DNA of 54,414 nucleotides from a bacterium (lineage in GTDB: Bacteria > Patescibacteriota > CPR2 > UBA1875 > JAJYID01): the NCBI GenBank assembly GCA_021796415.1, contig JAJYJC010000003.1, positions 1 through 54,414 on the forward strand, in the 5' to 3' direction. Below the pieces are notes generated by a model. That model was given only the letters and a program-made list of their open reading frames with translations, did not search any database and had not been told where the DNA came from. Of this stretch, positions 4,449 to 53,239 are shown one piece after another (the first letter of the stretch is position 1; each line of letters starts with the position of its first letter). A program made the position numbers and the translations under genes.

Positions 4449-5278
4449 TGCTCTATATCGTGTCAACGCCGATTGGCAACCTGGAAGACATTACCTTGAG
4501 AGCAATTGAAATTTTGAAGAGTGCCGATGTCATTGCCTGCGAAGATACCCGCCATACAAAGATATTGCTTGATAAATATGGGATTGGCGAGAAGCATTGT
4601 AAGGATATTAACGTCGTTTGTCATTCCGACTGCCGCCACGCTAGTGGAAAGCGGAGGAATCCCTTAACAATGAGGGCAGAAAATGATTGTAATTATAATA
4701 AGGAAAAGGGATTCCTCGACTCGTCTCTCCGAGAAGTCGCTCGGAATGACAGAGAGGGGAACCCTATCAAACTTATCAGCTATCATCAGCATTCAGGGTT
4801 GGTAAAAACCGAAAAAATTATCAGCATGTTGAAAGAAGGTAAAAATGTGGCTCTTGTGACGGATGCAGGAACGCCAGGCATCTCTGATCCGGGCAGTAAA
4901 CTGATCGCTGAAGCGATTACAAGTGACATTGAGGTCACAGCAGTTCCGGGTCCAGCCGCATTTGTATCTGCATTATCGGTTTCGGGCTTTGACACTTCTG
5001 AGTTTGTATATGCAGGATTTCTTCCCCACAAAAAGGGAAGGCAGACAAAGCTTAAAGAAATTGCCGCCGAAAAAAGGACAATCGTTTTATATGAATCAGT
5101 GCACCGGATAAAAAAATTACTCGGAGAATTAGCGGAGATTATACCAGATAGGGAGGTTTGTGTTTGCCGGGAGTTGACCAAAAAATTTGAAGAAATTTAC
5201 CGTGGGACAGCAAGTGAAATATTAGATAAAATCATCGAAAAGGGCGAATTTGTGGTAGTTATAAAGGAGACGAGATGA
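4448..5278 (+). CDS. rsmI: 16S rRNA C1402 2'-O-methyltransferase RsmI with a ~55-aa repeat-derived in-frame insert
   Basis: LYIVSTPIGNLEDIT, CEDTRHT, DAGTPGISDPG, VCRELTKKFEE; paired REP-like elements at 4620-4750. Confidence 0.96.
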   Translation: MLYIVSTPIGNLEDITLRAIEILKSADVIACEDTRHTKILLDKYGIGEKHCKDINVVCHSDCRHASGKRRNPLTMRAENDCNYNKEKGFLDSSLREVARNDREGNPIKLISYHQHSGLVKTEKIISMLKEGKNVALVTDAGTPGISDPGSKLIAEAITSDIEVTAVPGPAAFVSALSVSGFDTSEFVYAGFLPHKKGRQTKLKEIAAEKRTIVLYESVHRIKKLLGELAEIIPDREVCVCRELTKKFEEIYRGTASEILDKIIEKGEFVVVIKETR

Positions 5279-5889
5279 TAAAAACAATAATTTTTGACAA
5301 TAATGGAGTCTTGACAACTAGTTGTGAAGAGGGTGCTTTGAAGGGTTTAATTGATTATCTCGGGGTTAGCGAAGAGCAGTTTTTACCTGTTTGGAATCGC
5401 GAGGCTGAGGCTGTTGATGAGGGTAAAATCAAAACTGAGAAATTTCTGCAAAATGTAGTTAATGATTTAAAACTATCAAAAGATCTTGGCAAATGCCAAA
5501 GATACTATTGGGACAGTTACGAGCCCAAGCCGGAGGTAAGGGAGTTTGCAAAGAATCTTAAGAAGAAGTTTGAGATAGCGTTTTTGACCAACTTTGGAGA
5601 TCATTTCTGGGTGTTTAACAAAAAATGGAAACTTGATCAAATATTCGATCGGGATAAAATGTTTGTTTCGGCAGATTTGAAAATGGCAAAGCCGCACTCG
5701 GATATTTACTTTGCAGTTCTCAAAAAACTAGGCAGAAAACCCGAGGAGGTCGTTTTTATTGATGACAAGAAAGAAAATGTAGATACAGCTGAGGAGATTG
5801 GCATGCATGGGGTTCAATTTAAATCCCTTGAACAGGTAGAAAAGGATCTTGAAAATATTTTGGAGCACCAACCATCCATGTTATCTTGA
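5275..5889 (+). CDS. HAD-superfamily phosphatase
   Basis: IIFDNNGVL motif I, KPHSDIY motif III, FIDDKKENV motif IV. Confidence 0.88.
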   Translation: MIKTIIFDNNGVLTTSCEEGALKGLIDYLGVSEEQFLPVWNREAEAVDEGKIKTEKFLQNVVNDLKLSKDLGKCQRYYWDSYEPKPEVREFAKNLKKKFEIAFLTNFGDHFWVFNKKWKLDQIFDRDKMFVSADLKMAKPHSDIYFAVLKKLGRKPEEVVFIDDKKENVDTAEEIGMHGVQFKSLEQVEKDLENILEHQPSMLS

Positions 5890-5896
5890 TTTTTTT

Positions 5897-5978
5897 GTCA
5901 TTCCCGCGCAGACGGGAATCCAGACATTAATATAGATTCCCGCCTGCGCGGGAATGACAAATGATGGGTAGGAATGAC
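5897..5978. repeat. REP-like doublet (dRS3/RPE-like, CGTC family)
   Basis: GTCATTCCCGCGCAGACGGGAATCCAG ... AGATTCCCGCCTGCGCGGGAATGAC ... GGAATGAC. Confidence 0.85.
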
Positions 5979-6009
5979 AATTCGTGCAAAATCGTGCTAA
6001 AATACAGTT

Positions 6010-12413: not shown

Positions 12414-13675
12414 AACATATCTATCTAGACCACGCGGCGACTACGCCGGTTTCAAAAGATGTTTTTGACGCGATGCAGCCATATTTCAGAGAAAAATACG
12501 GAAATCCTTCCAGTATTTATAAACTGGGCCAAGAAGCAAAATCAGCGGTTGAGCACGCTCGGGAAGAAGTTGCCGATATGCTTGGCGCTAAACCAAGGGA
12601 GATTATCTTTACCTCAGGCGCCACGGAATCGAATAACCTGGCACTGAAAGGTGTAGCGTTTTATTGGTCGCAGAATTTAAAAAAGAAACCCCACATTATC
12701 ATCAGCTCCATTGAACACCATTCTGTTTTAGACACGGCCGAGTATTTGGAGAAAAATTTCGGATTTGAAGTTACAAAACTGCCGGTTTCAAAGGAAGGAA
12801 TAGTTGATCCAACAGATTTGGAGAGTGTAATCAAGGACAACACAGTCATTGTCTCAGTAATGTATGGAAATAATGAAGTTGGTTCCATACAGCCGATCAA
12901 AGAATTGGGCGAAGTTATTAAAAGGGTAAACGCTAAAAGGGTCAGACCCTTGCAAAATAACGGGAAATCTCATGATTTTGAGCACGAAAATTCCTTACAA
13001 GGGTCAGACCCTTGCAGTCAACCGATTGTTTTCCATACCGATGCGGTGCAGGCGTTTCAGTATCTTGATTGTGACGTCAAAGGTCTGGGCGTGGATATGC
13101 TCTCTCTGACAGGGCATAAGTTCTACGGACCGAAAGGTGTGGGGCTGCTTTATGTAAAATCAGGCACGAAATTTCTGTCGCAGCAACAAGGCGGGGCGCA
13201 GGAAAGAGGCCTGAGAGCCGGAACCGAGAATGTGCCATATATCGTCGGAATGGCAAAAGCAATGAGTGATACCAGGAAACAATTAACAATTAGCAAACAA
13301 CAAATCGCTGATTTGCGAGACTATTTAGTTAAACGAATAGCGGCTGAAATTCCCGATGTGGTTTTGACCGGACCGGAAATCGGCAAAAAGAGATTACCGC
13401 ACATTGCCAGCTTCATATTTAAGAAAATAGAAGGTGAGTCGATTCTCATTAATCTGGACTTGCTTGGCATCGCCGCATCCAGCGGTTCTGCCTGCACATC
13501 CGGAAGCCTGGCATCATCGCATGTTTTGACGGCCATGGGTTATGACGACCTTCTGGCGCACGGTTCTATCCGTTTTAGTCTTGGCAAAATGAATTCAAAG
13601 GAGGAAATTGACGAGATGATGAAACATTTGCCGCAGATTGTAGAGAAATTAAGAGGCATGAGCCCGATAAAGTAG
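12410..13675 (+). CDS. iscS: Cysteine desulfurase IscS/NifS with in-frame repeat insert
   Basis: IYLDHAATTP, GNPSS, HTDAVQ, TGHKFYGPKG, SSGSACTSGS. Confidence 0.96.
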   Translation: MKHIYLDHAATTPVSKDVFDAMQPYFREKYGNPSSIYKLGQEAKSAVEHAREEVADMLGAKPREIIFTSGATESNNLALKGVAFYWSQNLKKKPHIIISSIEHHSVLDTAEYLEKNFGFEVTKLPVSKEGIVDPTDLESVIKDNTVIVSVMYGNNEVGSIQPIKELGEVIKRVNAKRVRPLQNNGKSHDFEHENSLQGSDPCSQPIVFHTDAVQAFQYLDCDVKGLGVDMLSLTGHKFYGPKGVGLLYVKSGTKFLSQQQGGAQERGLRAGTENVPYIVGMAKAMSDTRKQLTISKQQIADLRDYLVKRIAAEIPDVVLTGPEIGKKRLPHIASFIFKKIEGESILINLDLLGIAASSGSACTSGSLASSHVLTAMGYDDLLAHGSIRFSLGKMNSKEEIDEMMKHLPQIVEKLRGMSPIK

Positions 13676-17934: not shown

Positions 17935-19062
17935 ATGGCTAAAGCTAACACTAAAAGTAGACTTAATCAAAGAGTACTTGTCGCTATGTCGGGAGGGGTA
18001 GATTCTTCCGTCGCTGCATATTTATTAAAAGAAGAAGGATACGGGGTTATCGGCGCCACGATGAAGCTTTTTTGCTATGGGGAAAAGCAAGAAAGGCAAA
18101 AGGCTTGCTGTTCGCTTGAAACAATTAACGATGCAAAGCAAGTTTGCGAACAGCTGGGCATCCCACATTATGTTTTTGATATGGAAGAAGAGTTTGAACG
18201 GGAAGTTATTGAGGATTTTGTAAAGGAATATGAGAAGGGCAGAACTCCCAATCCTTGTATCCGCTGCAACCAGCTGATAAAGTTCGATTATTTATTAAAT
18301 AAAGCCAAAGAATTAAATTGTGACTTTTTGGCAACCGGGCACTATGCCAGGATAGCGAACAGCAACCAAAGTTGTCATTATGAGCGATCCGGCAGTTGCC
18401 GGAAGCCGAAGAATCCCTTAAAATTATTAAAAGGAGCTGACGAGGCAAAGGACCAGACATATTTTCTTTATCGGCTAAACCAAAACCAGCTTTCAAGGAT
18501 AAAGTTTCCGTTGGGTGAACTGACCAAGAAAGAGGTGAGGAAAATTGCCAAGGAAGGGGGCCTCAAGACAGCCGAGAAAGCCGAAAGCCAGGAAATTTGC
18601 TTTGTCGACACAAGCGTCTCAGAATTTATTTCAGATAAAATCAAGGTAAAAAGAGGCGATATTTTGGATACCTCAGACAGAAAGATGGGCGAGCACGAAG
18701 GCGTCCCATTCTACACTATAGGCCAGAGAAAAGGCCTTGGAGGAGGCTTTAAAGAACCAATGTATGTCGTCGATATCGATGCGGCGAAAAATGCGGTCAT
18801 CGTCGGGCAGGAACAGGATTTATATAAAAAAGAAGTGTTTTTTGACGATGCGAACTGGATATCAGGCGATACGCCGGCCGGAACAGGTTTGTCTGCTGTG
18901 ATCCGTTATAACATGAAAGAGGAGAGCGTTTCAGAATTGAAACAGATTCAAGGCGCGTATAAAACAATCTTTGAGAAAAAGGTGAGAGCGGTTACTCCCG
19001 GACAATCGATTGTGTTCTACTCGGGCGATGAATGCCTCGGTGGGGGAATCATTAAAAATTAA
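17935..19062 (+). CDS. mnmA: tRNA 2-thiouridylase MnmA with short repeat-derived insert
   Basis: VAMSGGVDSS, PNPCIRCN, ATGHYA, KDQTYFL, ESQEICF, TIGQRKGL, TPGQS. Confidence 0.97.
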   Translation: MAKANTKSRLNQRVLVAMSGGVDSSVAAYLLKEEGYGVIGATMKLFCYGEKQERQKACCSLETINDAKQVCEQLGIPHYVFDMEEEFEREVIEDFVKEYEKGRTPNPCIRCNQLIKFDYLLNKAKELNCDFLATGHYARIANSNQSCHYERSGSCRKPKNPLKLLKGADEAKDQTYFLYRLNQNQLSRIKFPLGELTKKEVRKIAKEGGLKTAEKAESQEICFVDTSVSEFISDKIKVKRGDILDTSDRKMGEHEGVPFYTIGQRKGLGGGFKEPMYVVDIDAAKNAVIVGQEQDLYKKEVFFDDANWISGDTPAGTGLSAVIRYNMKEESVSELKQIQGAYKTIFEKKVRAVTPGQSIVFYSGDECLGGGIIKN

Positions 19063-20104: not shown

Positions 20105-21925
20105 ATGGATTCTAAAGAACTAAGGCAAAAGTTTCTGAAATTTTTTGAAGAGAAGGGGCACAAAGTTATCCCTTCAGCTTCGCTTGTGCCCGAAAACGAC
20201 CCGTCGGTGCTTTTCACCACCGCCGGCATGCATCCGCTCGTCCCTTATATCATGGGGGAGGATCACCCGAAAGGCAAAAGGCTGACTGACTCTCAGAAAT
20301 GCATTCGCACTGATGATATCGAAGATGTGGGCGATAGAGTTCACCATACTTTTTTTGAAATGTTGGGAAATTGGTCGTTTGGTGACTATTTCAAGGAAGA
20401 TGCCATTAAATACAGCTACGAGTTTTTGACTGATAAAAAATGGCTTGGTATAGATAAAAACAAACTAGCCGTAACTGTGTTTATGGGGGACAAGGACGCG
20501 CCTTTTGACGAAGATTCATATAACATCTGGCTTTCACTGGGAATTCCCAAAGAAAGAATTGCAAGGCTTGGCAAAAAGGACAATTGGTGGGGACCGGCCG
20601 GCGAGACCGGGCCGTGCGGGCCGGACACGGAAATGTTCTTTTGGTCAGCAAAAGAAAAAGCTCCTGAAAAGTTTGACCCAAATGACGACAGATGGACTGA
20701 GATTTGGAATGATGTTTTTATGCAGTACAACAAGAAAAAGGATGGGAAATTTGAAACGCTGAAACAAAAAAATGTCGATACCGGCATGGGGCTCGAGAGG
20801 ATGCTGGCGGTTCTAAACGGCTTTGACGATGATTACCGGACCGATTTGTTTACACCGATAATTAAACGAATTGAAAAGCTATCTGATATGGAGTACGGCG
20901 AAAAGACTGACGAAGAATATGTAAAGGAAGATTTGCAGTGCTGGGTTGATGTAAGGATTCAGTTTAGAATCATTGCAGATCATGTAAAGGCGGCGATTTT
21001 TGCAATTAATGATGGAGTTATACCTTCAAATAAACAAGCCGGTTATGTTACACGCCGATTGATTAGGCGAACTATCGTTAAAGGCCACCAGGTCGGCATA
21101 AAAGAGAATTTTCTCGCTGATTTTGTCGAAGTAATCCAAGAAATTTATAAAGGTATCTATGATCTGAAGGCTGATTTAATTACAAAAGAGCTAAAGTCTG
21201 AAGAGGATAAGTTTAGAAAGACTCTGCAAGTTGGCTTGAAAGAATTTGAAAAAGTTTCAGTTAAATCAATTTCAGGAAAAGACGCTTTTGATTTGTACCA
21301 GAATTATGGTTTTCCCTTGGAAATGGTTGAGGAGTTGGCAAAAGAGAAAAAGCTAAAAGTAGATAAGAAGGGATTTGAAGAAGAATTTAAAAAACATCAG
21401 GAGCTTTCGCGCAGCGCTTCGGCCGGTATGTTCAAGGGCGGTTTGGCGGATGATTCTGAAATGGCGACCAAATATCATACGGCAACACATTTATTGAATG
21501 CAGCGCTGAGAGAGGTTTTGGGTGATCATGTCGAGCAAAGGGGGTCAAATATCAATGCCGAAAGGTTGAGATTTGACTTCTCTCATGACGTGAAAATGAC
21601 CGATGAGGAAAAGAAAAAAGTTGAGGATCTGGTCAATGGACAGATTGCCAATAATTTACCCGTTACAAAGGAAGAGATGACAGTCGAAGAAGCCAAAAAA
21701 CAAGGCGCCGTAGGAGTATTTGGTGAGAAATATGGTGAAAAAGTCTCGGTCTATACCATTACCAATCCCACACCGGGTGTGGGATTGAAGGGGGAGCGTG
21801 TTTTCAGCCGGGAAATCTGCGGCGGGCCGCATGTCAAAAACACCGGTGAGCTGGGACGCTTCAAAATTAAAAAGGAAGAATCAAGCTCGAAGGGGGTGAG
21901 GAGAATTAAGGCGGTTTTAGAGTAA
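20105..21925 (+). CDS. alaS: Alanine--tRNA ligase lacking the C-Ala domain
   Basis: LFTTAGMHP, HTFFEMLGNWS, VDTGMGLER, HTATHLL, ICGGPHV; ends at GVRRIKAVLE. Confidence 0.96.
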   Translation: MDSKELRQKFLKFFEEKGHKVIPSASLVPENDPSVLFTTAGMHPLVPYIMGEDHPKGKRLTDSQKCIRTDDIEDVGDRVHHTFFEMLGNWSFGDYFKEDAIKYSYEFLTDKKWLGIDKNKLAVTVFMGDKDAPFDEDSYNIWLSLGIPKERIARLGKKDNWWGPAGETGPCGPDTEMFFWSAKEKAPEKFDPNDDRWTEIWNDVFMQYNKKKDGKFETLKQKNVDTGMGLERMLAVLNGFDDDYRTDLFTPIIKRIEKLSDMEYGEKTDEEYVKEDLQCWVDVRIQFRIIADHVKAAIFAINDGVIPSNKQAGYVTRRLIRRTIVKGHQVGIKENFLADFVEVIQEIYKGIYDLKADLITKELKSEEDKFRKTLQVGLKEFEKVSVKSISGKDAFDLYQNYGFPLEMVEELAKEKKLKVDKKGFEEEFKKHQELSRSASAGMFKGGLADDSEMATKYHTATHLLNAALREVLGDHVEQRGSNINAERLRFDFSHDVKMTDEEKKKVEDLVNGQIANNLPVTKEEMTVEEAKKQGAVGVFGEKYGEKVSVYTITNPTPGVGLKGERVFSREICGGPHVKNTGELGRFKIKKEESSSKGVRRIKAVLE

Positions 21926-28570: not shown

Positions 28571-29890
28571 ATGTTTTGTGATGAAGCGACAATTCAAGTA
28601 ACTGCCGGCAAGGGAGGCGATGGCCTGTCTAGCTTTTTGCATGAAAAATTCAGGGCAAAGGGCGGATCTGATGGAGGCAATGGAGGAGATGGAGGCAGTG
28701 TTTATTTAATTTCAAGCAACAGCACAAACACTCTCTATGACTACAAAACAAAACGGCGCATGAAGGCGGAAAACGGCGAGCAGGGGAAAAGATATAAAAA
28801 ACACGGCGCACAGGGAAAAGATTTAGAGGTCAGAGTGCCCATTGGGACTCAGGTATTTGACGAGGCAAGCGGTCACAAATTGTTTGATTTTACTAAAAAC
28901 GGCCAGAAGTTTTTAGCTGCGAAAGGAGGAGAGGGCGGTTTTGGCAATGCTCACTTCGTCTCATCAGTCAGGCAGGCGCCGCAGGTTGCAGAACTCGGTG
29001 AAAAAGGAGAAGAAAAAACTCTCAAGTTAGAACTAAAACTTATTGCCGATGTCGGCTTGATTGGGCTGCCCAATGTCGGCAAATCCACCTTTCTTTCAGT
29101 TGTATCAGCGGCCAGGCCCAAAATCGCCGATTATCCCTTTACCACAATTATCCTAAATCTTGGCGTTGTGGACGGCTCAAAACACGGCATTAAAGGCTTC
29201 AGCTTTGTTATTGCCGACATTCCCGGATTAATAGAAGGCGCCTCAAAGGGAAAAGGGCTTGGGGATGAATTTCTGCGCCATGTTGAGAGAAATCGCGTCC
29301 TGGTGCATTTTATCGACTCAAACTCAGAGGATTTTGCCAAAGACTTTAAAGATATCAACAGAGAGCTCCTAGAATTTAGCAAAGATCTAGTTTTGAAGCC
29401 CCAGATCGTGGTGATCACAAAGACTGACGCGGCAAATGATTTCCAGGAAAAGTTACAGAGATTACAAAATGAGCTAAAAAAGGAAAAGAAAGTAAAAATC
29501 ATAAACAAAAAGCCTCTTTTGATCTCCGCAGCCACTCACGCGGGTGTTAAGGAATTGGTCTCTTTGGTTGCCCAGACTTTACAAAAACAACTACTTTCCT
29601 CTTTGTCATCCCCGCGCAGGCGGGGAACTACAACAAAAGCAGGGGAAAAGGTCTTCACGGCGCGCGATATTGTCGGCTCAACTTTTCACATTGAGGAAAT
29701 AGGCGGCAAATTCATTATTACAGGAGCAAAAATAGAACGATTTGCCCGCAAAACTGATTTTTCAAATTACCATTCAAAAGCCAGAATGCTGGACATCATG
29801 AGCAAAATGGGTATAATGAAGGAGCTCGAGAAAAGAGGGGCCGGTGTCGGCAGTGAAATTGAAGTTAGCGGCAAGAAGTTTAAATTATAA
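28571..29890 (+). CDS. obgE: GTPase ObgE/CgtA with C-terminal domain
   Basis: MFCDEATI, GGDGGSV, GLPNVGKST, DIPGLIEGA, TKTD; REP-like insert at 29605-29626. Confidence 0.96.
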   Translation: MFCDEATIQVTAGKGGDGLSSFLHEKFRAKGGSDGGNGGDGGSVYLISSNSTNTLYDYKTKRRMKAENGEQGKRYKKHGAQGKDLEVRVPIGTQVFDEASGHKLFDFTKNGQKFLAAKGGEGGFGNAHFVSSVRQAPQVAELGEKGEEKTLKLELKLIADVGLIGLPNVGKSTFLSVVSAARPKIADYPFTTIILNLGVVDGSKHGIKGFSFVIADIPGLIEGASKGKGLGDEFLRHVERNRVLVHFIDSNSEDFAKDFKDINRELLEFSKDLVLKPQIVVITKTDAANDFQEKLQRLQNELKKEKKVKIINKKPLLISAATHAGVKELVSLVAQTLQKQLLSSLSSPRRRGTTTKAGEKVFTARDIVGSTFHIEEIGGKFIITGAKIERFARKTDFSNYHSKARMLDIMSKMGIMKELEKRGAGVGSEIEVSGKKFKL

Positions 29891-32758: not shown

Positions 32759-33752
32759 GTGGGCAAACCGACAATTGAAAAACAATAAAGTTTCTGAGCC
32801 GGAAAAATCGGCAGAGTTTTTGCTGCGGCAAGTTTTAAGCGCAGGAGCTCAGTCCCACACCGGGTGTGGGATTGAATGGGATAAAGCCAAGTTAATCGCA
32901 AATCCCGATTACGCATTAACTGGGAAGCAGGAGGAGCAATTCCGCCAGTTCATCGAGAGACGCAAGAAGCACGAACCGGTTTGGTATATAACGGGGCGCA
33001 TAGAATTTTATGGACTGGATTTGGAGGTCAGCCAGGATGTTTTGATTCCGCGGCCGGAAACAGAGTTTCTGGTTGAAGAGGTGCTCTCCGTCATTCCCGC
33101 GGAGGCGGGAATCCAGAGAAAGGATTGTATAGATTCCCGCCTCTGCGGGAATGACAGTAAAAAGGGCGGGAATGACAATGCTGCTAGGATTTTGGAGCTG
33201 GGAACAGGGAGTGGAGCGATATCTCTTGCGCTTGCGAGCCAATTCAAGGGTAAAAAAGAAGGATTCTGGTCAAGCCAGAATGACGTAGAAATTTTTGCTT
33301 CGGATATTTCCAGTGATGCACTTAAGATTGCCAAAAGGAATGCAAAGAGGTTAGGACTGGATTCCCGATCGGGGTCGGGAATGACAAAAATAGTCGGCAT
33401 TGAGTTTCGGCAGGGAGACTTGCTGGCGCCATGGCAAGGTGAAATGTTTGACATCATTGTTGCCAATTTGCCATACATACCGCATGAAGATCTGGATTCG
33501 TTAGCACTCGATATCCATCACTGGGAACCAAGGGTGGCTTTGGACGGAGGCAAGGAAGGTCTGGAGATTTACGAAAGGCTGATAAAACAGGCAAAAGATT
33601 ATTTAAATGAAAATTATCAAATGTTTTTTGAAATAGGCATTGGCCAAGGGAAGGGAATTCGCAAATTAGCCGAAAAATACTTACCGGAGGCAAGCGTTGA
33701 AATAAAAAAAGATTATGGCGACATTGACCGCATCGCTATAATCAAAGGCTAG
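32736..33752 (+). CDS. prmC: Release factor glutamine methyltransferase PrmC with four repeat-derived inserts
   Basis: EPVWYITG, VLIPRPETE, ELGTGSGAI, DIS..AL, ANLPYIP, ALDGGKEGL, EIG, KDYGDIDR. Confidence 0.95.
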   Translation: MRVKEALKWANRQLKNNKVSEPEKSAEFLLRQVLSAGAQSHTGCGIEWDKAKLIANPDYALTGKQEEQFRQFIERRKKHEPVWYITGRIEFYGLDLEVSQDVLIPRPETEFLVEEVLSVIPAEAGIQRKDCIDSRLCGNDSKKGGNDNAARILELGTGSGAISLALASQFKGKKEGFWSSQNDVEIFASDISSDALKIAKRNAKRLGLDSRSGSGMTKIVGIEFRQGDLLAPWQGEMFDIIVANLPYIPHEDLDSLALDIHHWEPRVALDGGKEGLEIYERLIKQAKDYLNENYQMFFEIGIGQGKGIRKLAEKYLPEASVEIKKDYGDIDRIAIIKG

Positions 33753-33844: not shown

Positions 33845-33909
33845 GTCATTCTGAACTTGATTCAGAATCCAGACTGATTATATAGATTCCGGATCAAGCC
33901 CGGAATGAC
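33845..33909. repeat. REP-like doublet
   Basis: GTCATTCTGAACTTGATTCAGAATCCAG ... AGATTCCGGATCAAGCCCGGAATGAC. Confidence 0.85.
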
Positions 33910-36725: not shown

Positions 36726-39588
36726 AAAAAAAATGGAAAAATACAATCATAAAAAAATAGAGTCCAAGTGGCGGGAGATTTGGGAAAAATCAGGGATTTA
36801 CAACACTGATTTAGCATCAAAAGACCCTAAATTTTACAATTTGATTATGTTTCCGTATCCAAGCGGGGAATATTTGCATATCGGCCATGCTTACTCAGAC
36901 ACCGGAGCGGATGTTTATGGCAGGCACAAAAAGCTAAATGGCTACAATGTTTTTATGCCGATTGGTTATGACGCTTTTGGATTGCCAGCTGAGAATTATG
37001 CGATAAAAGCCGGTGTGAATCCAAAGGAAAGTACGGCAAGCAACATTGAACACGCCGAAAAACAGTTAAAGAGCTGGGGCTGCTCCTTTGATTGGTCGCA
37101 CAAAATGACAACTTCTGACCCAAGCTATTATAAATGGACGCAATGGTTGTTTTTGAAGCTTTACAAAAAAGGACTGGCTTATCAAAAGGAAGCGCCGGTG
37201 AACTGGTGTCCGGAGTGTAAGACGGTTCTTGCGAATGAACAAGTGATCGAAGGGCTTTGCGAGAGATGTGACTCGGAAGTCGTACAGAAGAATCTAAAGC
37301 AATGGTTTTTCAAAATTACCGATTACGCCGACAGATTGATAAAAGATTTGGATAAGGTAGATTGGCCGGAATCATCTATCACTAAGCAAAGAAATTGGAT
37401 AGGCAAAAGCGAAGGCGTGGAAGTACAATTTGAAATTCGAAATTCGAAATTCGAAAAAGAAGAGACCAAAATTACAGTTTTTACCACCAGAGTCGACACA
37501 ATATATGGTTGCACATATCTAGTTTTGGCGCCGGAACATCCATTGGTGGAAAAAATTACAGTTCCAGAGCAGAAGAAAGCAGTTGAGAAATATTTAATTC
37601 AAACTCAAAAATTAACGGAAATCGAGCGCCAGTCGCTTGAAAAAGAAAAAACAGGAGTCTTCACCGGCGCTTATGCCATAAATCCTTTTAACAATGAGGA
37701 AGTGCCGATTTGGATTGCTGATTATGTGCTTTACGGCTATGGAACCGGCGCGGTGATGGCCGTCCCGGCGCATGATGAGCGCGACTATGAGTTTGCCAAA
37801 AAATATAAATTGCCGATGAAGGAATCCGTGGCTCCATACACTAAGTTTGAAACCAAGCCGGGAAAAGAAACGGAAGTACGCGACCTTGCCATAGCGGTCG
37901 TCCGTAATCCGAAAGACAATAAGTATTTGTGCCTTAAGTGGAAAAAGACAAAATGGCAGGCATTTCCATCCGGAGGGACTGACGGCGAGGAAATTGTTAC
38001 AGCGGCAAAAAGAGAGGTTTTAGAAGAAACCGGCTATAAAAACATTAAATTCATTAAGAAATTCAGAAATACTATCTTTGAGGAATTTTACCGGCCTCAT
38101 AAGGATTCAAATGTCATTGCTCACTCCATTTATTCGCTCTTTGAACTTGAGAATGATGAGCGGCAAGAGGTGGCTCAGAAGGAAAAGGATCAGCATGAAG
38201 CAGTTTGGGTCAAGGCAGAAGAAGTCGAAAATTTCTTGAATATAAAACATCTGAAGATTTTCTGGAAGTCTCTACAGGCTGGAGAGGAGATGCCATTCAC
38301 TGGTCCCGGGAAGCTGGTGAACTCGGGTGAGTTTAATGGGTTATTCTCAGATGAGGCTAAAAAGAAAATGGCTGAGTGGTTGAAAAAGAAAGGCTTTGGA
38401 AGGCGCAAAATTAATTATCGTCTTCATGACTGGTCTATCGGCCGGCAGAGATATTGGGGAGCGCCGATACCTATTATTTATTGTGAAAAGTGTGGTGTGG
38501 TGCCGGTTCCTGAAAAAGATCTGCCGGTAAAGTTGCCGGAAAATGTCAAAGATTTTAAGCCAAAAGGTACCGGCAAAGGGCCATTGGCATCAGTAAAAGA
38601 ATTTGTTGACACCAGGTGTCCGTATTGCGGAGGCAAGGCGGAAAGAGAAACTGATACCATGGATACCTTTGTTGATTCAAGCTTCTACTTCATGCGCTAT
38701 CCAAGCGTTGGGGATGATAAAGAGATGATGGAGCCGAATATGACGAAGAAATGGTTGCCGGTTGATATGTATGTCGGCGGGGCAGAGCATGTCACAATGC
38801 ATCTTTTATACGCCCGATTTATAACCAAAGCCATGCATGACATGAAAATGATCAGTTTTGACGAGCCGTTTTTGAAGCTGCGCCATCAGGGCATGATTCT
38901 GGGCCCGGACGGCAAGAAAATGTCGAAATCAAAGGGCAACGTTATCATTCCGGACGAGGTTATAAGAGAACATGGCGCCGACGCTTTTCGAACCTACATT
39001 TTGTTTATGGGAAGGTTTGAAGACGGCGGTCCGTGGAATCCGAAAGGATTGGTCGGCGTCAAAAGGTTCTTGGAGAAAATTTGGAAAATGCATGAAAGCA
39101 CATGGCCAAAAATTTCAAATACGGAAATTCAGGCAAAGCTTGCGCGGACGATCAAGAAAGTCGGCGCGGATATTGAAGATTTTAAGTTTAATACCGCCAT
39201 TGCTTCGCTTATGAAGTTTTCAAATGTTTTGCAGGAAGAAAAGAACCCGATATCCAAGGGAGACTTTGAGAAGCTCATCGTTATTTTGTCGCCTTTTGCG
39301 CCATTTATGGCTGAAGAGTTCTGGGAAAAGCTGGGTAACAAGGATAGCGTACATGTTCAGGGTTGGCCGGAATATGACGAGAAATTAATAAAAGAAGAAA
39401 CCGTTACTGTGGCGGTGCAAATAAACGGCAAGGTTAGAGGACAGGTCGTGGCGAACGCAGAGGCGAACCAAGATGAAGTTTTGGAGCTGGCAAAAGCTAG
39501 CGAAAAAGTGCAGAAATATCTGGAAGGCAAGAAACTCGAGAAAGTCATATATGTTCCGGGCAAGCTGCTTAGCCTTGTCATAAGCTAA
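36721..39588 (+). CDS. leuS: Leucine--tRNA ligase with inserted NUDIX domain
   Basis: MFPYPSG.YLHIGH, FTTRVDT, GTGAVMAVPAHD, RQRYWGAPIP, KMSKS; Nudix-like box at 37972-38037; start may be 36733. Confidence 0.97.
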   Translation: MTKKMEKYNHKKIESKWREIWEKSGIYNTDLASKDPKFYNLIMFPYPSGEYLHIGHAYSDTGADVYGRHKKLNGYNVFMPIGYDAFGLPAENYAIKAGVNPKESTASNIEHAEKQLKSWGCSFDWSHKMTTSDPSYYKWTQWLFLKLYKKGLAYQKEAPVNWCPECKTVLANEQVIEGLCERCDSEVVQKNLKQWFFKITDYADRLIKDLDKVDWPESSITKQRNWIGKSEGVEVQFEIRNSKFEKEETKITVFTTRVDTIYGCTYLVLAPEHPLVEKITVPEQKKAVEKYLIQTQKLTEIERQSLEKEKTGVFTGAYAINPFNNEEVPIWIADYVLYGYGTGAVMAVPAHDERDYEFAKKYKLPMKESVAPYTKFETKPGKETEVRDLAIAVVRNPKDNKYLCLKWKKTKWQAFPSGGTDGEEIVTAAKREVLEETGYKNIKFIKKFRNTIFEEFYRPHKDSNVIAHSIYSLFELENDERQEVAQKEKDQHEAVWVKAEEVENFLNIKHLKIFWKSLQAGEEMPFTGPGKLVNSGEFNGLFSDEAKKKMAEWLKKKGFGRRKINYRLHDWSIGRQRYWGAPIPIIYCEKCGVVPVPEKDLPVKLPENVKDFKPKGTGKGPLASVKEFVDTRCPYCGGKAERETDTMDTFVDSSFYFMRYPSVGDDKEMMEPNMTKKWLPVDMYVGGAEHVTMHLLYARFITKAMHDMKMISFDEPFLKLRHQGMILGPDGKKMSKSKGNVIIPDEVIREHGADAFRTYILFMGRFEDGGPWNPKGLVGVKRFLEKIWKMHESTWPKISNTEIQAKLARTIKKVGADIEDFKFNTAIASLMKFSNVLQEEKNPISKGDFEKLIVILSPFAPFMAEEFWEKLGNKDSVHVQGWPEYDEKLIKEETVTVAVQINGKVRGQVVANAEANQDEVLELAKASEKVQKYLEGKKLEKVIYVPGKLLSLVIS

Positions 39589-42123: not shown

Positions 42124-42160
42124 GAGGGTCGGACCGTGTCTCTTACAGGGTCCGACCCTC
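42124..42160. repeat. GGGTC.GACC-family palindrome
   Basis: GAGGGTCGGACC-13 nt-GGTCCGACCCTC. Confidence 0.7.
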
Positions 42161-43002: not shown

Positions 43003-45699
43003 ATGTATCTCAAAAACATTCATGTTGCAGGATTTAAGTCTTTCGGAGGGAAGAATGTTTTGGATTTCCCCGAAGCCGGAAGCGCCAAGCAGAAAAGTTT
43101 TGCCGCGGTTGTCGGACCGAACGGAAGCGGAAAGAGTAATATTGCCGACGCTATCCGCTGGGTTTTGGGCGAACAATCTTCGAAGCTTCTCAGAGTGAAA
43201 AAAGGCGAGGACGTCATATTCTTCGGCAGTGCCAAGAAGGGCAGGGGATCATTCTCGGAAATTTCTTTAACCTTAGATAATGCTTGTTCCTTCCGTCATC
43301 CTGAGGTATCGAAGGATCTCAAAAGTAATTTCCAATTTCCAATTTCCCTGCCTCGCCGGCAGGCAGGCAATTTCCAATCAAATTCAAATGTTCAAAATTC
43401 AAAAGGATTGGATTCCCGCCTTCGCGGGAATGACATGGAAATAAATGGAAATGACAATGGTGTTGACCTTTCCGAGATTGAAATTACCCGCCGCCTGTAT
43501 CGAAACGGCGATAATGATTACTTTGTTAACAGGAAAAAGGTCAGGCTGTTCGATGTGCAGGAACTGCTTGCAAAATGCGGGGTGGGAAGATCTACTTATA
43601 CAGTTATCGGACAGGGGATGGTTGATTCTTTGCTTTTTTATGGTCCGGCTGAGCGGAAAGTTCTCTTCGAGGAAGCATCGGGCGTGAAGCAGTATGAGAT
43701 CAAGCGCGCTGAATCTTTACGCAAACTAGACTCAACAGACAAAAACATTATCCGCATTAAAGATCTTTTGTATGAATTGGAGCCGAGATTGAAGTCGGCT
43801 GAGCGAAACTTCAAAAAATACCAAAAAAAGCAGGATATAGAGAAGGAGCTGGATGAGCTGAGCCGCAAATATTATTCCGGCGTATTTTCTCAAATTCAAT
43901 CCAAGAAAGAAAAGCTGCAGAAGGAACTCACAGAATTTAAGAAGAAAGAATCCGGCCTGCAGTCAGAAATTACTGCACTGGAAGCAAAAATCGCCAAAGG
44001 TTTAAAAGCCGAGGGTTCTGACAAGAAGGAGAAAGAGCTTCGAGGGAATATTGACTCGCTTGCTGCAAGAAGCGATGATCTTGCGCGGCAAATTTACAGA
44101 TTAGAGGCTGAAAATCAAGCGTCGAAGTCTGTATTCTCAAGGGAGAAGGAAGGGCTTTTCGGTGAAAGAGATAGGATTTCTCGGGACATCCGAGAGTTAG
44201 AAGAAAAAATAGCCAGGCTAAATACAGAGGGCAGTGAAAATCAGGCGAGGCTTGATAGCGCCAAGAGAGAGCTTGCCGAGCTGGACAAAAGAATTGTTTT
44301 TTCAAATGACACTCTGGCAAAAATTCAACGGGAAAGCTTGTCTTTGACCAAGGATGACATTCGAAAAAAGCTAGAAGAGATTTACAAAAATTACTCGCTG
44401 GTGGTGGCAAAAATGAATTCCGTCACTGATCTGAAAAGTTTCGGCAAACTCAAAAAAGAGGCGGAAAGTGTAGCAAATGCCTTAGATGCTTTGGCAGAAG
44501 ACATCAAAAAAAGCCAGAGCACCGACACCAGCCTGCTTGAAAGCAAGCAAAAAGAGATAAAGGGGCTGGTTCAAAATAAGGAAAAAATACTCAGTATCAT
44601 TCAGGATTTAAGGGTCAGATCCATTTCACGGGAAGACATCTTGAAGAATTCAAAAAGCCGGGCCGAGAGCTTAAAGAAGCAATTAGAAGATACAGTTGCC
44701 AAGATAGGCAGTTTAAAAGAGCCGGAAGCCGGAGGTTTGAAAAAGATTACCGAGTTAAACCGGGAAAAAACAGGCATAGACGAGGAAATTTCTGAGTTAA
44801 AACTTAAGCTGGAGGAGTTGGCGTCAAAAAGCGCTTCCGGTGACTATACTAAGATTTTGGAAGATGAGAAGTCAAGGAGAAGAGAGCTCGCGGGTGTTCA
44901 AGAAGAAATTGGCGCTTTCAATATTGATCTGGCAAAGGTAGAGACGCGCGAGGAAGATTTGCGCGATGAAATCCATGAGTTTCTGGGCGAGACATTTTAC
45001 AAGGGTCTGACCCTTGCAGAGGACAGTCCTCTGCAAGGCGGGAACTTTGACCATCTGATGCCAAAAATCCAGCGCCTTCGAAAGGACATGTATGCGCTCG
45101 GCGAGATCGACCAGTTTGTCGGGGAAGAGTTTGAAGAGCTGGAGGGGAGGGTTGGTGAATTGCGTGAACAATATGAGGATTTGGAAAAGGCAAAAAAAGA
45201 CATATTGAAAGTTATAGGAGAGTTAGACGCGCGCATCAAGACACAGTTCAAAACCACATTTGTAAAAATTTCAGAGGAGTTTACCAAATATTTCAAAATT
45301 CTTTTTGGCGGGGGCAATGCGGCATTGAATCTAGAAACAGATGAGGAGGGAAACTTTGGCGTGGAGATTACAGCGACGCCGCCGGGCAAGAAAAACCAGT
45401 CTCTAAATTCGTTATCAGGCGGAGAAAGGGCTCTGACCTCGATCGCGCTTCTTTTTGCTATTTTAAGCGTAAATCCAAGTCCATTCTGTGTACTGGATGA
45501 GGTAGACGCTTCACTTGACGAAACAAATACTGAAAGATTTTTGGAAATTTTAAAAACTCTCTCACATAAAACTCAATTTATTGTCGTTACACACAACCGC
45601 GAAACCATGAAGAAAGCCGACGTTATCTACGGCGTCTCCATGGACGACAATCATGTGTCGCAAGTGTACTCGCTGAAACTGACAGAAGTTGGAACATGA
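43003..45699 (+). CDS. smc: SMC-family ATPase (short, no evident hinge) with repeat-derived insert
   Basis: GPNGSGKSN Walker A, IGQG Q-loop, LSGGE, LDEVDASLD, VTH; composite repeat at 43295-43455. Confidence 0.9.
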   Translation: MYLKNIHVAGFKSFGGKNVLDFPEAGSAKQKSFAAVVGPNGSGKSNIADAIRWVLGEQSSKLLRVKKGEDVIFFGSAKKGRGSFSEISLTLDNACSFRHPEVSKDLKSNFQFPISLPRRQAGNFQSNSNVQNSKGLDSRLRGNDMEINGNDNGVDLSEIEITRRLYRNGDNDYFVNRKKVRLFDVQELLAKCGVGRSTYTVIGQGMVDSLLFYGPAERKVLFEEASGVKQYEIKRAESLRKLDSTDKNIIRIKDLLYELEPRLKSAERNFKKYQKKQDIEKELDELSRKYYSGVFSQIQSKKEKLQKELTEFKKKESGLQSEITALEAKIAKGLKAEGSDKKEKELRGNIDSLAARSDDLARQIYRLEAENQASKSVFSREKEGLFGERDRISRDIRELEEKIARLNTEGSENQARLDSAKRELAELDKRIVFSNDTLAKIQRESLSLTKDDIRKKLEEIYKNYSLVVAKMNSVTDLKSFGKLKKEAESVANALDALAEDIKKSQSTDTSLLESKQKEIKGLVQNKEKILSIIQDLRVRSISREDILKNSKSRAESLKKQLEDTVAKIGSLKEPEAGGLKKITELNREKTGIDEEISELKLKLEELASKSASGDYTKILEDEKSRRRELAGVQEEIGAFNIDLAKVETREEDLRDEIHEFLGETFYKGLTLAEDSPLQGGNFDHLMPKIQRLRKDMYALGEIDQFVGEEFEELEGRVGELREQYEDLEKAKKDILKVIGELDARIKTQFKTTFVKISEEFTKYFKILFGGGNAALNLETDEEGNFGVEITATPPGKKNQSLNSLSGGERALTSIALLFAILSVNPSPFCVLDEVDASLDETNTERFLEILKTLSHKTQFIVVTHNRETMKKADVIYGVSMDDNHVSQVYSLKLTEVGT

Positions 45700-49072: not shown

Positions 49073-49176
49073 GTCATCCTGAGTGAAGCGTAGCGGAATC
49101 GAAGGATCTCATAAACAAGATTCCGAGAGAAAGGGATTCCTCGGCTCGCCGCTATCGTGAAGCCGCTCGGAATGAC
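49073..49176. repeat. REP-like doublet
   Basis: GTCATCCTGAGTGAAGCGTAGCGGAATCGAAGGATCTC ... AAGGGATTCCTCGG..GCTCGGAATGAC. Confidence 0.85.
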
Positions 49177-49201
49177 AATTAATTGTGATAGAATAGAAAG
49201 C

Positions 49202-49922: not shown

Positions 49923-49963
49923 TTAATCATTAATAGTAAGTGACTAAAGGAGTGTATTTTTAA

Positions 49964-50146
49964 ATGGCAAAATTTGTAGTAGACGAAAACTTGTGCAGCG
50001 GGTGCGGAACCTGCGTAAATGTATGTCCGGATTGTTTTGAGCTCGGAGATGATTATAAGTCTCATGTCAAACAAGACAATTGCGACAATTGTGACGCCGA
50101 TGAAGTAGTGCTCGAGTGCCCGATGGGGGCCATAAGTTATGAATGA
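49964..50146 (+). CDS. Single-cluster ferredoxin
   Basis: CSGCGTCVNVCP ... ECPMGAI. Confidence 0.9.
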   Translation: MAKFVVDENLCSGCGTCVNVCPDCFELGDDYKSHVKQDNCDNCDADEVVLECPMGAISYE

Positions 50147-50948
50147 TTTTGATTCCATAAATCCGATGAATGCATATCCTTCGGGGCAAGGAGGTGGCTC
50201 GGGAAGCTCAGGTGTGCCGCCGAGCGGACCGGTTGATCCCACGCCTCCGCCGATTAATCCTATTAGCCCTCAAGGGCCGATGAGCGAAAAAACAAACTTT
50301 TCCAGGATATATCAAATCATAATTGGAGCGGTGGCTTTGTTTCTGATTATATCCCTGATTTTTGCAGCTATTTATTACCAGAAGGCAAACAAGACGCAGG
50401 CATATATAAATAGCGTTGCTTCGCAGGCGGCCGACCAAAAAGCCAAAGATGACAAGGTATCATGTGACGCGCAAATCAAAGACATCAAGGAAAATCCTTG
50501 GACGGAGTACACTGCCAGGCAGGAGTTTGGGGCCTTTAAATTTATAGTGCCGAGAAATTGGTCGCAGTATGAGTACTACGATATAAATGCCAATGATCCT
50601 TACAGTCTCTTTTTCAGCCCGGATACGGTTCGTTATGACTCAAACACCAGAGATAACCATTCCGCTCTTCAAGTTGTGGTCAGCAAAAGGCTTTATTCTG
50701 ATGAAATAAGTGATCTCGAACAAAGTATAAAGATGAATATGGATACTAGTTCAAGCGAGGAAAAGGTTACCATTTCTAATTTTACCGGAACAAAGTTTGT
50801 TTACACTAACAAGGACTTAAACCGCAAGGTTGGCGTCATAGTTCTGCCGTACCGCGATAGGGCGCTTATGATTAAAACCGACGATTATGACAAGTGGGGC
50901 GACAAATATTTCACCAAGTTTTACCAGTCGTTTGCATTAACACCGTAA
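50139..50948 (+). CDS. Membrane-anchored hypothetical protein (PsbP-like C-terminus)
   Basis: Pro/Gly-rich N-terminus, TM, FKFIVPRNWS, ends FYQSFALTP. Confidence 0.75.
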   Translation: MNDFDSINPMNAYPSGQGGGSGSSGVPPSGPVDPTPPPINPISPQGPMSEKTNFSRIYQIIIGAVALFLIISLIFAAIYYQKANKTQAYINSVASQAADQKAKDDKVSCDAQIKDIKENPWTEYTARQEFGAFKFIVPRNWSQYEYYDINANDPYSLFFSPDTVRYDSNTRDNHSALQVVVSKRLYSDEISDLEQSIKMNMDTSSSEEKVTISNFTGTKFVYTNKDLNRKVGVIVLPYRDRALMIKTDDYDKWGDKYFTKFYQSFALTP

Positions 50949-51070
50949 ATGGGTTAATCGGTACTTGGGTCGATAGGGAATTAGGTTTTTCAGGAGTATC
51001 CTTGTTGGGCGGGTCTTTTGATGTCCTTATACTAGAATTGATCGCATACTCGTGATAGAATAGTTGCCTT

Positions 51071-53239
51071 ATGGATAAATTTGTCTTAAAACATGCGCAT
51101 AAGCCGACCGGCGACCAGCCTCAGGCGATAGAGAAGCTTGCGTCTGGCATAGAAAAGGGTCTCACGCGAGAGATTCTGCTTGGCGTGACCGGATCCGGCA
51201 AGACTTTCACGGCGGCAAATGTGATTCAAGAGATTAATAAGCCGACGCTGGTTATTTCCCATAACAAAACTTTGGCGGCACAACTGTATAGCGAATTCAA
51301 GGAATTCTTCCCCGACAACGCTGTCCGCTACTTTGTTTCATACTACGATTATTACCAGCCGGAGGCCTACATCCCGAGAACCGACACCTACATTGAGAAA
51401 GACGCAAAAATCAATGAAGAGATCGATCGCTTGAGAAATGCGGCCACGGCAGCCCTGCTGTCACGAAAAGACGTGTTAATAGTCGCCAGTGTCTCCTGCA
51501 TCTATGGCCTTGGCTCTCCGGAAGACTATTTCCAGATGAGAGTGGACTTTGAGGCCGGCAGGGCAAAGAACCAGGAAAAGGCCATGCGCCAGCTGCTCGA
51601 GGTACAGTACGAGCGAAATGACAAGACATTTGAACGGGGGAATTTCCGGGTGCGGGGCGATGTACTCGATATATTTCCGATTTACGAGGAAATAGGCTAT
51701 CGCATTCAATTTGATGGGAATGTTGTGGAAGCTATCCGAAGCATCAATCCGGTGACAGGCGAGCTCGGCAAAAAAATAGATAAATTGTCTGTCTTTCCGG
51801 CGCGCCACTTTGTCACGCCGAAGGAAAGGCTGCACTCTGCCATTCCGGAAATCAGGACAGAGCTGGCAGTAAGGCTTAAAGAGCTAAAAACGCAAGGGAA
51901 ATTGCTTGAAGCGCAAAGGCTCGAGCAAAGGACGAACTTCGACCTGGAAATGATTGAAGAAACGGGCTTTACCTCCGGCATTGAGAACTATTCCCGTTAT
52001 CTCTCCGGCAGGAAGGCGGGTGAGGCGCCGTCAACTTTGCTTGATTTCTTCCCGGACGATTATCTTCTTCTCATAGACGAATCGCACATGACTATTCCAC
52101 AGATTCGGGGGATGTATAACGGCGACCGGTCCCGAAAAGAAACCTTAGTTGAGCATGGTTTCAGGCTTCCCTCAGCGCTCGACAACCGTCCGCTTCACTT
52201 TTCGGAATTCAAGAAATTAATGGGCCAAACCGTATTTATCTCTGCCACCCCGGGACCCTATGAGTTTAAGGTTGCAAGTGAGGGCGAGATAGAGTCAGCT
52301 GATGAATATTATGAGGCGGTAAGAAATAATGATCAATTTCCAGTTTCCAATTTCCAATCAATTTCCAATGAGCAAAATTCAAACAAAAAAGGTCATTCTG
52401 GGGACGATAGGACTCCAGAATCGGATTTGGACAAGGATTCTGGCCAAGCCAGAATGACGGGAAGGGGTTTCCCTTGGATTGCCGAGCAGATCATTCGCCC
52501 GACCGGGTTGCTTGAGCCTCTTGTCGATGTCAGGCCGACCAAAAACCAGATAGACGACCTTATCCACGAGATTCGCCAAACGGTCAAGAAAAAGCAGCGG
52601 GTTTTGGTGACGACCCTGACCAAAAGAATGGCAGAAGACCTAAGCGAATATCTGAAAGAGTTGGGTATCAAGGTTACATATTTGCACTCCGAAATTAAAA
52701 CACTTGAGCGCCCGGAAATTTTGAGGGACCTTCGAAAGGGTGTTTATGATGTGGTAGTTGGAATCAATCTGCTCCGAGAAGGCTTGGACCTGCCGGAAGT
52801 GTCGCTGGTTGGCATTTTGGACGCAGATAAGGAAGGATTTTTGCGAAGCAACCAGTCGCTAATTCAGACGATGGGCCGGGCCGCCAGGCATCAAGAAGGC
52901 CGGGTCATAATGTACGCCGATAATATCACCGGGTCGATGAAGCAGGCGATAGGCGAGACACAGCGCAGGCGCAAGATTCAGGAAGAATACAACAAGAAAC
53001 ATGGCATCACGCCGAAAACCATTCAGAAAGCTATCCGAGATGACCTGGCACAAAAGGTGCCGGAAGAGAAGAAGATAGAAATCTCAGATATTCCAAAGGA
53101 TGAGGTAGAGAGAATTGTGCGGGACATGAGAAAACAAATGGAAATAGCTTCGAAGAATTTAGAATTTGAAACAGCCGCCAAACTGCGCGACCAGATTCGT
53201 GACATAAGGGCAAAACTGGAATCGAAAAAGATTAAATAG
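51071..53239 (+). CDS. uvrB: Excinuclease ABC subunit B with ~60-aa repeat-derived insert
   Basis: [64 protein letters not shown]. Confidence 0.98.

Follow-up and report, generated by a model that had tools for sequence, protein, structure and literature searches.

The 54,414-nucleotide stretch of contig JAJYJC010000003.1 (assembly GCA_021796415.1; hereafter, the window) belongs to a Patescibacteria-type lineage, and the short palindromic repeats that crowd its spacers also occur, in frame and free of stops, inside core genes. We located 12 such sites in eight genes: rsmI, iscS, mnmA, alaS, obgE, prmC, smc and uvrB. A preliminary description of the same DNA had listed nine invaded genes; eight of them stand, while the ninth, leuS, is doubtful. 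Most likely, these segments are CGTC-type repetitive extragenic palindromes (REPs) or REPIN-like elements, together with mosaics of them, which selection has filtered into in-frame loop insertions. This is a new, very dense case of a known element type (the Rickettsia palindromic element, RPE, and the intragenic REPs of Di Nocera 2013), now in Patescibacteria.

All nine gene identities given earlier (rsmI, iscS/nifS, mnmA, a short alaS, obgE, prmC, leuS, smc and uvrB) agree with NCBIfam equivalog models, and the genes that host inserts are single-copy, essential and otherwise intact. Nearly all window genes lie on the plus strand, and the G+C content is 41-50%. The nearest named database proteins come from the Patescibacteria group, several phyla of the Candidate Phyla Radiation (CPR) and candidate division WS5, in agreement with the CPR-like origin suggested before. 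Three further contigs, assembled independently (ENA and Logan), encode proteins identical to the insert-bearing RsmI, and one of them (L081) also encodes a protein identical to the insert-bearing IscS; the inserts are, therefore, not an artefact of one assembly. Close relatives, in which gene order is conserved with respect to the window, were found through PrmC homologues and lineage-specific anchor proteins; where they must be told apart, they carry L or P numbers below.

The spacers are packed with hairpin units built on a common frame, (T/C)GTCAT(T/C)C-stem-loop-stem-G(A/G)AT, which reads ...GAATGAC on the other strand. The repeats had been described as several unrelated families, a view that does not hold: F1, F1b, F2, F6 and F7 share the frame (T/C)GTCAT(T/C)C...G(A/G)ATGAC. 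F1 is GTC-ATTCCCGC-N4-GCGGGAAT-CCA, and F1b is the same unit with a 6-nt loop. F2 is ATTCTGG-N5-CCAGAAT, F6 is GTCATCCTGAGG...CGAAGGATC, and F7 is a long element with arms of ~45 nt (GTCATTCCGA...GGAATCCCTT) that reaches ~131 nt in rsmI. Three palindromes are untagged, F3 (CCTGCCTGCCGGCAGGCAGG), F4 (CAAGGGTCAGACCCTTG) and F5 (ATCCCACACCGGGTGTGGGAT), the first of which, a CCTGCC palindrome, is often nested within the F2-type frame. AT-rich arrays with a 7-nt period (CAATTTC / GAAATTG) are also present. Each repeat motif occurs in 3-6 copies at up to two mismatches, compared with 0.00-0.13 expected from first-order Markov simulations, and GTCATTC is found 32 times against 6.5 expected. Units often pair inverted as doublets, with tags outward and tails facing each other, and these fold into a single long hairpin, as REPINs do; the intergenic doublet at 5897-5958 forms one such hairpin (-42.9 kcal/mol, z -10.4). 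Larger mosaics mix units with AT-rich arrays and span up to 54 codons. An Rfam scan returned two tRNAs only, and no family matched the repeats or the inserts.

Four intergenic loci, to which no strand is assigned, serve for comparison:

5897..5978, intergenic F1 doublet with a duplicated GGAATGAC end, the reference copy; stops in five of six frames
33845..33909, intergenic doublet following prmC; about five compensatory stem changes separate it from its orthologue in L084
36663..36725, intergenic doublet with the annotated leuS ATG inside its GAATGAC end
49073..49176, intergenic F6 + F7 doublet overlapping the annotated trmD start

The segments found inside genes are the following:

4592..4768, plus strand, rsmI insert of 59 codons (+59 aa); its core, 4620-4750, is a 131-nt F7 element resembling a miniature inverted-repeat transposable element (MITE), with inverted arms of ~45 nt, GTCATTCCGA...TCGGAATGAC
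12938..13021, plus strand, iscS insert of 28 codons (+28 aa); two CAAGGGTCAGACCCTTG hairpins (F4) around a 45-nt spacer
18358..18420, plus strand, mnmA insert of 14-19 codons; degenerate solo unit TGTCATTATGAGCG...GAAGAATCCCTT
21763..21787, plus strand, perfect 25-nt F5 palindrome in alaS, CAATCCCACACCGGGTGTGGGATTG, encoding TNPTPGVGL
29591..29647, plus strand, obgE linker rewritten around an F1-type hairpin (29605-29626, GTCATCCCCGCGCAGGCGGGGA), encoding SSPRRRG
32838..32876, plus strand, prmC site 1, F5 palindrome encoding SAGAQSHTGCGIE
33087..33185, plus strand, prmC site 2, full F1 doublet with a duplicated GGAATGAC end (33090-33176), encoding VIPAEAGIQRKDCIDSRLCGNDSKKGGND
33243..33284, plus strand, prmC site 3, solo F2 unit GATTCTGGTCAAGCCAGAATGAC encoding EGFWSSQND
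33360..33398, plus strand, prmC site 4, solo F1b unit GATTCCCGATCGGGGTCGGGAATGAC encoding DSRSGSGMT
37432..37452, plus strand, (GAAATTC)x3 in leuS, encoding EIRNSKF; the doubtful case
43282..43464, plus strand, smc head insert, a mosaic of net +162 nt (54 codons) that replaces seven host codons
45000..45038, plus strand, smc site 2, F4 hairpin plus a hairpin with a 12-bp stem, encoding GLTLAEDSPLQGG
52331..52462, plus strand, uvrB insert of 44 codons; AT-rich array (CAATTTCC...) plus F2 doublet GTCATTCTGG...CCAGAATGAC

The repeat sequences quoted in the preliminary description and the peptides VIPAEAGIQ, DSRLRGND, SPRRRG and NPTPGVGL are all present where it placed them. Its insert boundaries required correction in rsmI and uvrB, where the inserts are wider than given, and it had missed the second smc site.

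Coding and intergenic copies are 92-100% identical over 17-48 nt, except for the rsmI arm and a stretch of smc (81-85%), and they are built alike, down to the non-palindromic end GGGAATGAC-N12-17-GGAATGACAAT. The right F7 arm of the rsmI insert is 85% identical over 48 nt to intergenic 49130-49177 and 83% identical over 29 nt to 30049-30077. This insert (residues 48-107) corresponds to about one residue of Escherichia coli RsmI and sits between the two aligned blocks; its fold reaches -47 kcal/mol (z -4.6), and the only open frame of the six is the one in use. The site is empty in L099 and holds a different doublet, of F2 type, in L098. In IscS, residues 186-213 have no counterpart in the PDB homologue and are absent in L098, L099 and L100; the insert folds with a z of -5.0, and other F4 copies lie in the spacer at 12083-12099 and in smc at 45000. 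MnmA carries 14 extra residues with respect to its PDB homologue, and the site is empty in L099. This is a genuine insert of marginal repeat identity, with a sole match of 19 nt (E=0.01) and a fold z of -1.6. The alaS palindrome is identical over 26 nt to intergenic 3075-3100 and over 24 nt to prmC 32853-32876; it adds a net 5 aa relative to the nearest relative (P0122, 77% identity), in a loop of variable length. The obgE hairpin, 95.7% identical over 23 nt to intergenic 5939-5961, adds 7 aa (21 nt) compared with L086, L084 and L085, all of which lack it.

PrmC provides the richest record. Its 21 relatives at 57-89% identity range from 278 to 362 aa in length and show presence/absence variation at all four sites; compared with the solved homologue, three of the four sites are extra segments. 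At site 1, P0002, P0006 and P0010 have an F1-type element and others a solo F1 unit read as CHSREGGNP, and the site is empty in most. Site 2, built like intergenic 5897-5978, forms a 24-bp hairpin (-48.4 kcal/mol, z -10.1); it is absent in P0003/L101 and half present in L084. Site 3, 96% identical over 27 nt to the uvrB copy, is absent in L086 (36 nt) and L101. Site 4 is found in L086, L101 and L085, with 29/30 nt identical between the window and L085, and not in L084 or most other relatives.

The head insert of smc runs, in order, through an F6 hairpin, an AT-rich array, a CCTGCC palindrome, a second AT-rich array, an F1 unit and a duplicated GGAAATGAC end, and 64 nt of it are 81% identical to intergenic 41293-41356. 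It is absent in L090, L091, L092 and Bacillus subtilis Smc, and residues 98-153 correspond to two residues in the solved homologue. Site 2 is common to L090 and L091, the latter with a compensatory stem change, and L092 has a different element there. In UvrB, residues 401-467 form a 67-aa lineage-specific extension in place of two residues of the PDB structure. About 23 residues of it are common to all three relatives, and the 44-codon repeat insert lies within it; L091 has this insert at the same junction codons, and L092 and PDB UvrB lack it. The heptamer in leuS adds 5 aa relative to L091 and L092 and is 91.7% identical over 24 nt to the AT-rich array at 40681-40704 (E=0.002), which leaves its identity as a repeat in doubt; the same loop carries a tagged insert of the GTCATCC family in L084. 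LeuS (36721-39588) also contains an internal NUDIX-like domain at about residues 380-540, with the motif REVLEETGY, between the editing region and the remaining catalytic core. This domain is kept in L084, L091 and L092, and Pfam reports PF00293 within LeuS of L084.

Alignment with orthologues showed the inserts to be lineage-specific and every coding length difference (21, 36, 51, 84, 132, 150, 162 and 177 nt) to be a multiple of three, whereas intergenic differences in the same alignments were 5, 13, 16, 17, 25, 65, 83 and 112 nt. The sites are empty or differently filled in relatives at 60-96% identity, which supports the earlier proposal of RPE-like in-frame entry at high density. In the long coding inserts, one or two of the six frames are free of stops, and the host frame is among them; in five intergenic doublets or mosaics (63-113 nt), there is at most one such frame. 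Units in the ...GAATGAC orientation are read in both of their open frames (giving GND/QND and GMT/RMT) and never in the frame that would read GAA TGA C. UGA recoding was considered and rejected, given that TGA serves as a stop here, ending rsmI itself. Repeat loci are about 12-fold denser between genes (3.0 per kb) than within coding sequence (0.25 per kb). The inserts fall between the blocks aligned to solved homologues in rsmI, iscS, mnmA, prmC, uvrB and smc. In an AlphaFold model of PrmC (mean predicted local distance difference test score, pLDDT, 72), all four are coil with a pLDDT below 50, lying between secondary-structure elements; residues 41-48 (site 1) and 125-148 (site 2) are among these low-scoring segments. 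Multiples of three, openness of the host frame and location in loops argue for translated, tolerated surface loops, and, judging from the frame and stop avoidance, the inserts are most likely translated and tolerated as such.

Relatives have inserts of their own that the window lacks. Obg of L086 has an insert of +150 nt where the window has none, LeuS carries DSRLRGND-type inserts at two sites in L084 and one in L091, and AlaS of L098 contains a VIPAQAGI insert. A UvrD/PcrA-like helicase gene in L098 (799-932, genome JAJYLR01) holds an in-frame composite of the uvrB type, in the same orientation and reading frame and 83-84% identical to the uvrB copies. The same element types recur in unrelated genes (uvrB and uvrD; prmC, obg, leuS and alaS). 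Since relatives carry their own inserts, the process is clade-wide and ongoing. Some loops are hot spots in which the repeat family changes from one sister genome to the next; they are prmC sites 1 and 2, the rsmI site, the leuS loop and smc site 2. An exhaustive search with a 34-aa insert peptide, of low power, yielded 20 significant matches. Five of the six inspected were spurious open reading frames (ORFs) within repeat arrays of this class in other organisms; the sixth (P0253) was an MmeI-type DNA methyltransferase from an unrelated source with three in-frame VIPAQAGIQ...D(P/S)R(L/F)RG(D/N)D doublets.

Hairpins are maintained in orthologous copies by compensatory stem changes, in coding and intergenic positions alike. 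In smc, the stem CAGAGG/CCTCTG becomes CAAAGG/CCTTTG, and in LeuS, CCCGC/GCGGG becomes CCCGT/ACGGG.

These features can be set against the CGTC-tagged REPs, defined by an unpaired CGTC tag (often TGTC, with CCTC allowed), an 8-9-bp stem starting with two A-T pairs, a 4-5-nt loop and a CCA-like 3-nt tail (PMC3733652). In the window, all F1, F2, F6 and F7 units have GTC immediately before the stem, preceded mostly by T (TTTGTCAT) and sometimes by C. The F1 stem (ATTCCCGC/GCGGGAAT) has 8 bp and starts with AT, and that of F2 (ATTCTGG/CCAGAAT) has 7-8 bp. F1 loops are 4 nt long (GCAG, GGAG, CTGC, CTTC), with exceptions in F1b (6 nt) and the left uvrB unit (9 nt), and the tail is seen as GGGAAT-CCAGA at 5897, 33090 and 33845, with CTA or CGG in other units. 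The published repeats have no linked transposase and include intragenic copies, already known from several phyla in genes for tRNA synthetases and for DNA repair, uvrB among the latter (PMC3733652). Here too, no linked transposase was found within the window or the gene tables of relatives, there are several variant families per genome, and in-frame intragenic copies include uvrB and tRNA synthetase genes. CGTC elements have been reported from five phyla (PMC3733652), and a Patescibacteria-type host lies outside them. The intragenic density is much higher here, with 12 sites in 8 of ~55-60 genes, and some units have 6-9-nt loops or 7-bp stems. Among the published repeats, head-to-head dimers predominate, and clusters and mosaics are rare outside Neisseria and Wolbachia (PMC3733652); in the window, by contrast, clusters and mosaics are common.

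CGTC-1 has been equated with Neisseria dRS3 and Rickettsia RPE-6, and RPE-4, RPE-6 and dRS3 are placed in the CGTC group (PMC3733652), as the preliminary description held in outline. It had also counted the Wolbachia palindromic elements (WPEs) in, which is incorrect, as the Wolbachia CGTC elements are explicitly unrelated to WPE (PMC3733652). F1 fits the dRS3 pattern: six window copies match ATTCCC-N8-GGGAAT, the 20-nt inverted repeat that we take to be the dRS3 consensus. RPEs were described by Ogata et al. (2000) as palindromes of ~100-150 nt lying in frame in unrelated housekeeping genes, at sites compatible with the protein fold (PMC10969869, PMC3733652). The likeness to them is one of behaviour only (in-frame palindromes in housekeeping genes, fold-compatible sites and small host-dependent genomes), the closest analogue being F7 in rsmI, at 131 nt. 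The inserts in the window are mostly shorter, consisting of hairpin units or doublets, and several families occur at the same loops. The Rickettsia RPEs have been singled out in a 2024 review as the extreme case, with 44 copies in the whole R. conorii genome, about half of them in ORFs (PMC10969869), as against 12 sites in 54 kb here.

REPINs, for their part, share with the window repeats the inverted doublets forming one long hairpin, the compensatory upkeep of stems and the dispersed, mostly intergenic copies. REPINs are doublets of GTAG-tagged REPs mobilised by IS200/IS605-like Y1 transposases, the REP-associated tyrosine transposases (RAYTs). The tag in the window is (T/C)GTC instead, and no RAYT or REPtron was found in it. 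Neisseria intergenic mosaic elements (NIMEs) combine repeat units into mosaics with dRS3-type inverted repeats at their borders and are described as intergenic. The spacers of the window and its smc and uvrB inserts are built likewise, with the difference that a 54-codon mosaic sits here inside the SMC head domain. Inverted arms like those of MITEs are present (~45 nt in F7, and in the doublets), although no target-site duplication is recognisable next to them, the flanks being diverged or replaced. Literature searches on repeat-derived peptides and MITEs in Patescibacteria returned nothing relevant, and no paper in the collection searched describes such elements there.

The account that we favour is as follows. 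Small non-coding hairpin repeats, forming one superfamily, have spread through a Patescibacteria-type genome; their main type consists of an unpaired (T/C)GTC tag, an 8-bp stem starting with AT (ATTCCCGC), a 4-nt loop and a CCA tail, and variant stems exist alongside it. Copies got into genes by insertion or recombination, presumably mobilised in trans by an enzyme encoded elsewhere in the genome. Those seen today are what selection has left, with lengths in multiples of three, no stop in the host frame and positions in surface loops or linkers. They would be read as additional hydrophilic stretches of 7 to 59 residues within loops, probably near-neutral for protein function. Permissive loops are hit again and again, by different families in sister genomes, and homologous recombination between related populations shuffles alleles with and without inserts.

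Several observations weigh against this account. The base is narrow, namely one 54-kb window plus ~200 kb from relatives. No transposase or RAYT was found in the window or in the annotated flanks of relatives (L081, L084-L086), and a Pfam scan of 20 unannotated window ORFs gave no transposase and no Y1_Tnp match. Target-site duplications were recognisable at none of the filled/empty pairs, including the cleanest ones (window versus L086, L090 and L101), where flanks are rewritten, diverged or in recombination tracts; entry may, therefore, have been by transposition or by recombination. In addition, a number of polymorphic inserts lie in or at the edge of divergent recombination tracts. The window and L101 are 88-98% identical over prmC and the gene upstream, except for 57 nt between prmC sites 2 and 3, at 60%, and L101 lacks both inserts. 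Compared with L086, identity drops to 67% directly after prmC site 1, where the two hold different elements. Over its first 700 nt, a stretch that includes the insert, smc is 65-84% identical to L090, and over the remainder 94-96%. As inserts coincide with recombination mosaics, part of their patchy distribution reflects allele exchange rather than insertion or excision. Finally, the uvrB insert is, on sequence comparison, conserved far beyond what would be expected of a neutral passenger. Between the window and L091, it is 93.9% identical (0.88 at third positions), compared with 72.5% and 0.45 for the rest of the gene (P=3e-9), and its differences comprise five non-synonymous and three synonymous changes. 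The prmC inserts show the same trend, being better kept than their host gene. Within-genome gene conversion was considered as the cause of the uvrB conservation and rejected, because the uvrB-type paralogue carried by the L091 genome in its UvrD-like gene reaches 83% identity, compared with 94% for the orthologous copy.

Such conservation invites a different view of the intragenic copies. They might be held at the nucleotide level, or re-delivered to the same codon positions, by a hairpin-recognising system without a known transposase, and might also serve as points at which co-occurring Patescibacteria populations exchange alleles. We regard this as rather unlikely, but it would explain the uvrB insert (94% in a 72% gene), prmC site 4 (29/30 nt and patchy) and the recombination tracts that end at insert sites. 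At prmC site 4, the near-identity between the window and L085 contrasts with prmC genes that are only 65-66% identical in nucleotides, and yet the unit is absent in a closer relative.

Unlikely too, and slightly more so, is that intragenic copies are kept for a role as nucleic acid (a hairpin in mRNA or DNA, a site for protein binding, a signal for recognition or uptake, or a junction for recombination), with the peptide as a by-product. The conservation of the uvrB insert at the nucleotide level and at third positions, the similar trend in prmC, the compensatory substitutions within coding copies and the coincidence of insert sites with the edges of mosaic tracts are all consistent with such a role, as is the lower likeness of within-genome paralogues than of orthologues, which means that homogenisation is not the explanation. 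However, close relatives without the inserts have intact genes, so the copies are dispensable; different families occupy the same loop across genomes, and repeats are depleted 12-fold in coding sequence. The high identity could also mean that copies arrived late from one conserved master.

It is very improbable that the inserts are removed or skipped (as introns, inteins or by translational bypassing) or that the host genes are pseudogenes. Very stable hairpins inside the mRNAs, down to -48 kcal/mol, would suit removal or skipping, but neither would need multiples of three nor stop-free host frames, and 12/12 sites obey both. Inteins and self-splicing introns are recognised by splicing motifs, by a length of 130 aa or 200 nt upwards and by a known RNA family; the inserts, at 7-59 codons (21-177 nt), are too small for inteins or group I/II introns and have no Rfam match, and the host genes are single-copy, essential and otherwise intact. 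Ancient lineage-specific loops that merely resemble repeats, or repeats derived from gene fragments, can hardly be credited: some host loops do vary in length anyway (the alaS loop, the obg linker) and all three relatives have ~23 aa of the UvrB extension, but this view is already contradicted by the empty sites in relatives at 60-96% identity, by near-identity at the DNA level to many intergenic copies and by the presence of the same element in unrelated genes.

Patescibacteria genomes are ~1 Mb in size and regarded as streamlined. In this stretch, about one gene in seven carries repeat-derived loops, predicted to be translated, including smc, uvrB, two tRNA synthetase genes and genes for ribosome-biogenesis factors, an intragenic density well above that of the classical Rickettsia case. 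Were this true genome-wide, repeats would be a major source of lineage-specific insertions in CPR proteins and would confound homology searches, domain calls and gene starts. The inserts also constitute a natural experiment on which protein loops tolerate insertion. To our knowledge, no mobilising enzyme is known for the CGTC class, and small genomes rich in young polymorphic copies, such as this one, are well suited to the search for it.

Two start codons in the window already illustrate the effect on gene starts. The ORF-derived starts of leuS (ATG 36721) and trmD (GTG 49157) fall within the ...GAATGAC ends of upstream repeats; the true starts probably lie downstream, at M5 in LeuS, while the Pfam match of TrmD begins at residue 43. 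A gene end is affected as well: a 112-nt repeat-containing segment (41194-41305), without counterpart in L090, provides the last nine codons and the stop of a NusB-like ORF (40720-41220). AT-rich 7-nt arrays occur in many spacers (15040-15105, 17800-17905, 29891-30013, 40190-40290, 40590-40715 and 54200-54270), as CAATTTC or AAATCCT after genes and GAAATTG before genes. Some are long imperfect AT-rich inverted repeats, and the same arrays form part of the smc and uvrB inserts.

Minus-strand genes appear only as clusters of small ORFs at 2129-2927 and 53378-54052. Three of these ORFs (2667-2927, 53378-53689 and 53711-54052) had no match in a Pfam scan, nor did four further small ORFs at 2115-2837 in the precomputed Pfam table. 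A PhdYeFM-antitoxin-like ORF (12198-12413) lies just upstream of iscS. Around smc, comparison of window positions 42111-43700 showed the first 700 nt of the gene to be a mosaic closer to L091 than to L090. A gene of 163 aa without a Pfam match (42288-42779) is missing from L090 together with the surrounding spacer, in a region otherwise 94-98% identical on both sides.

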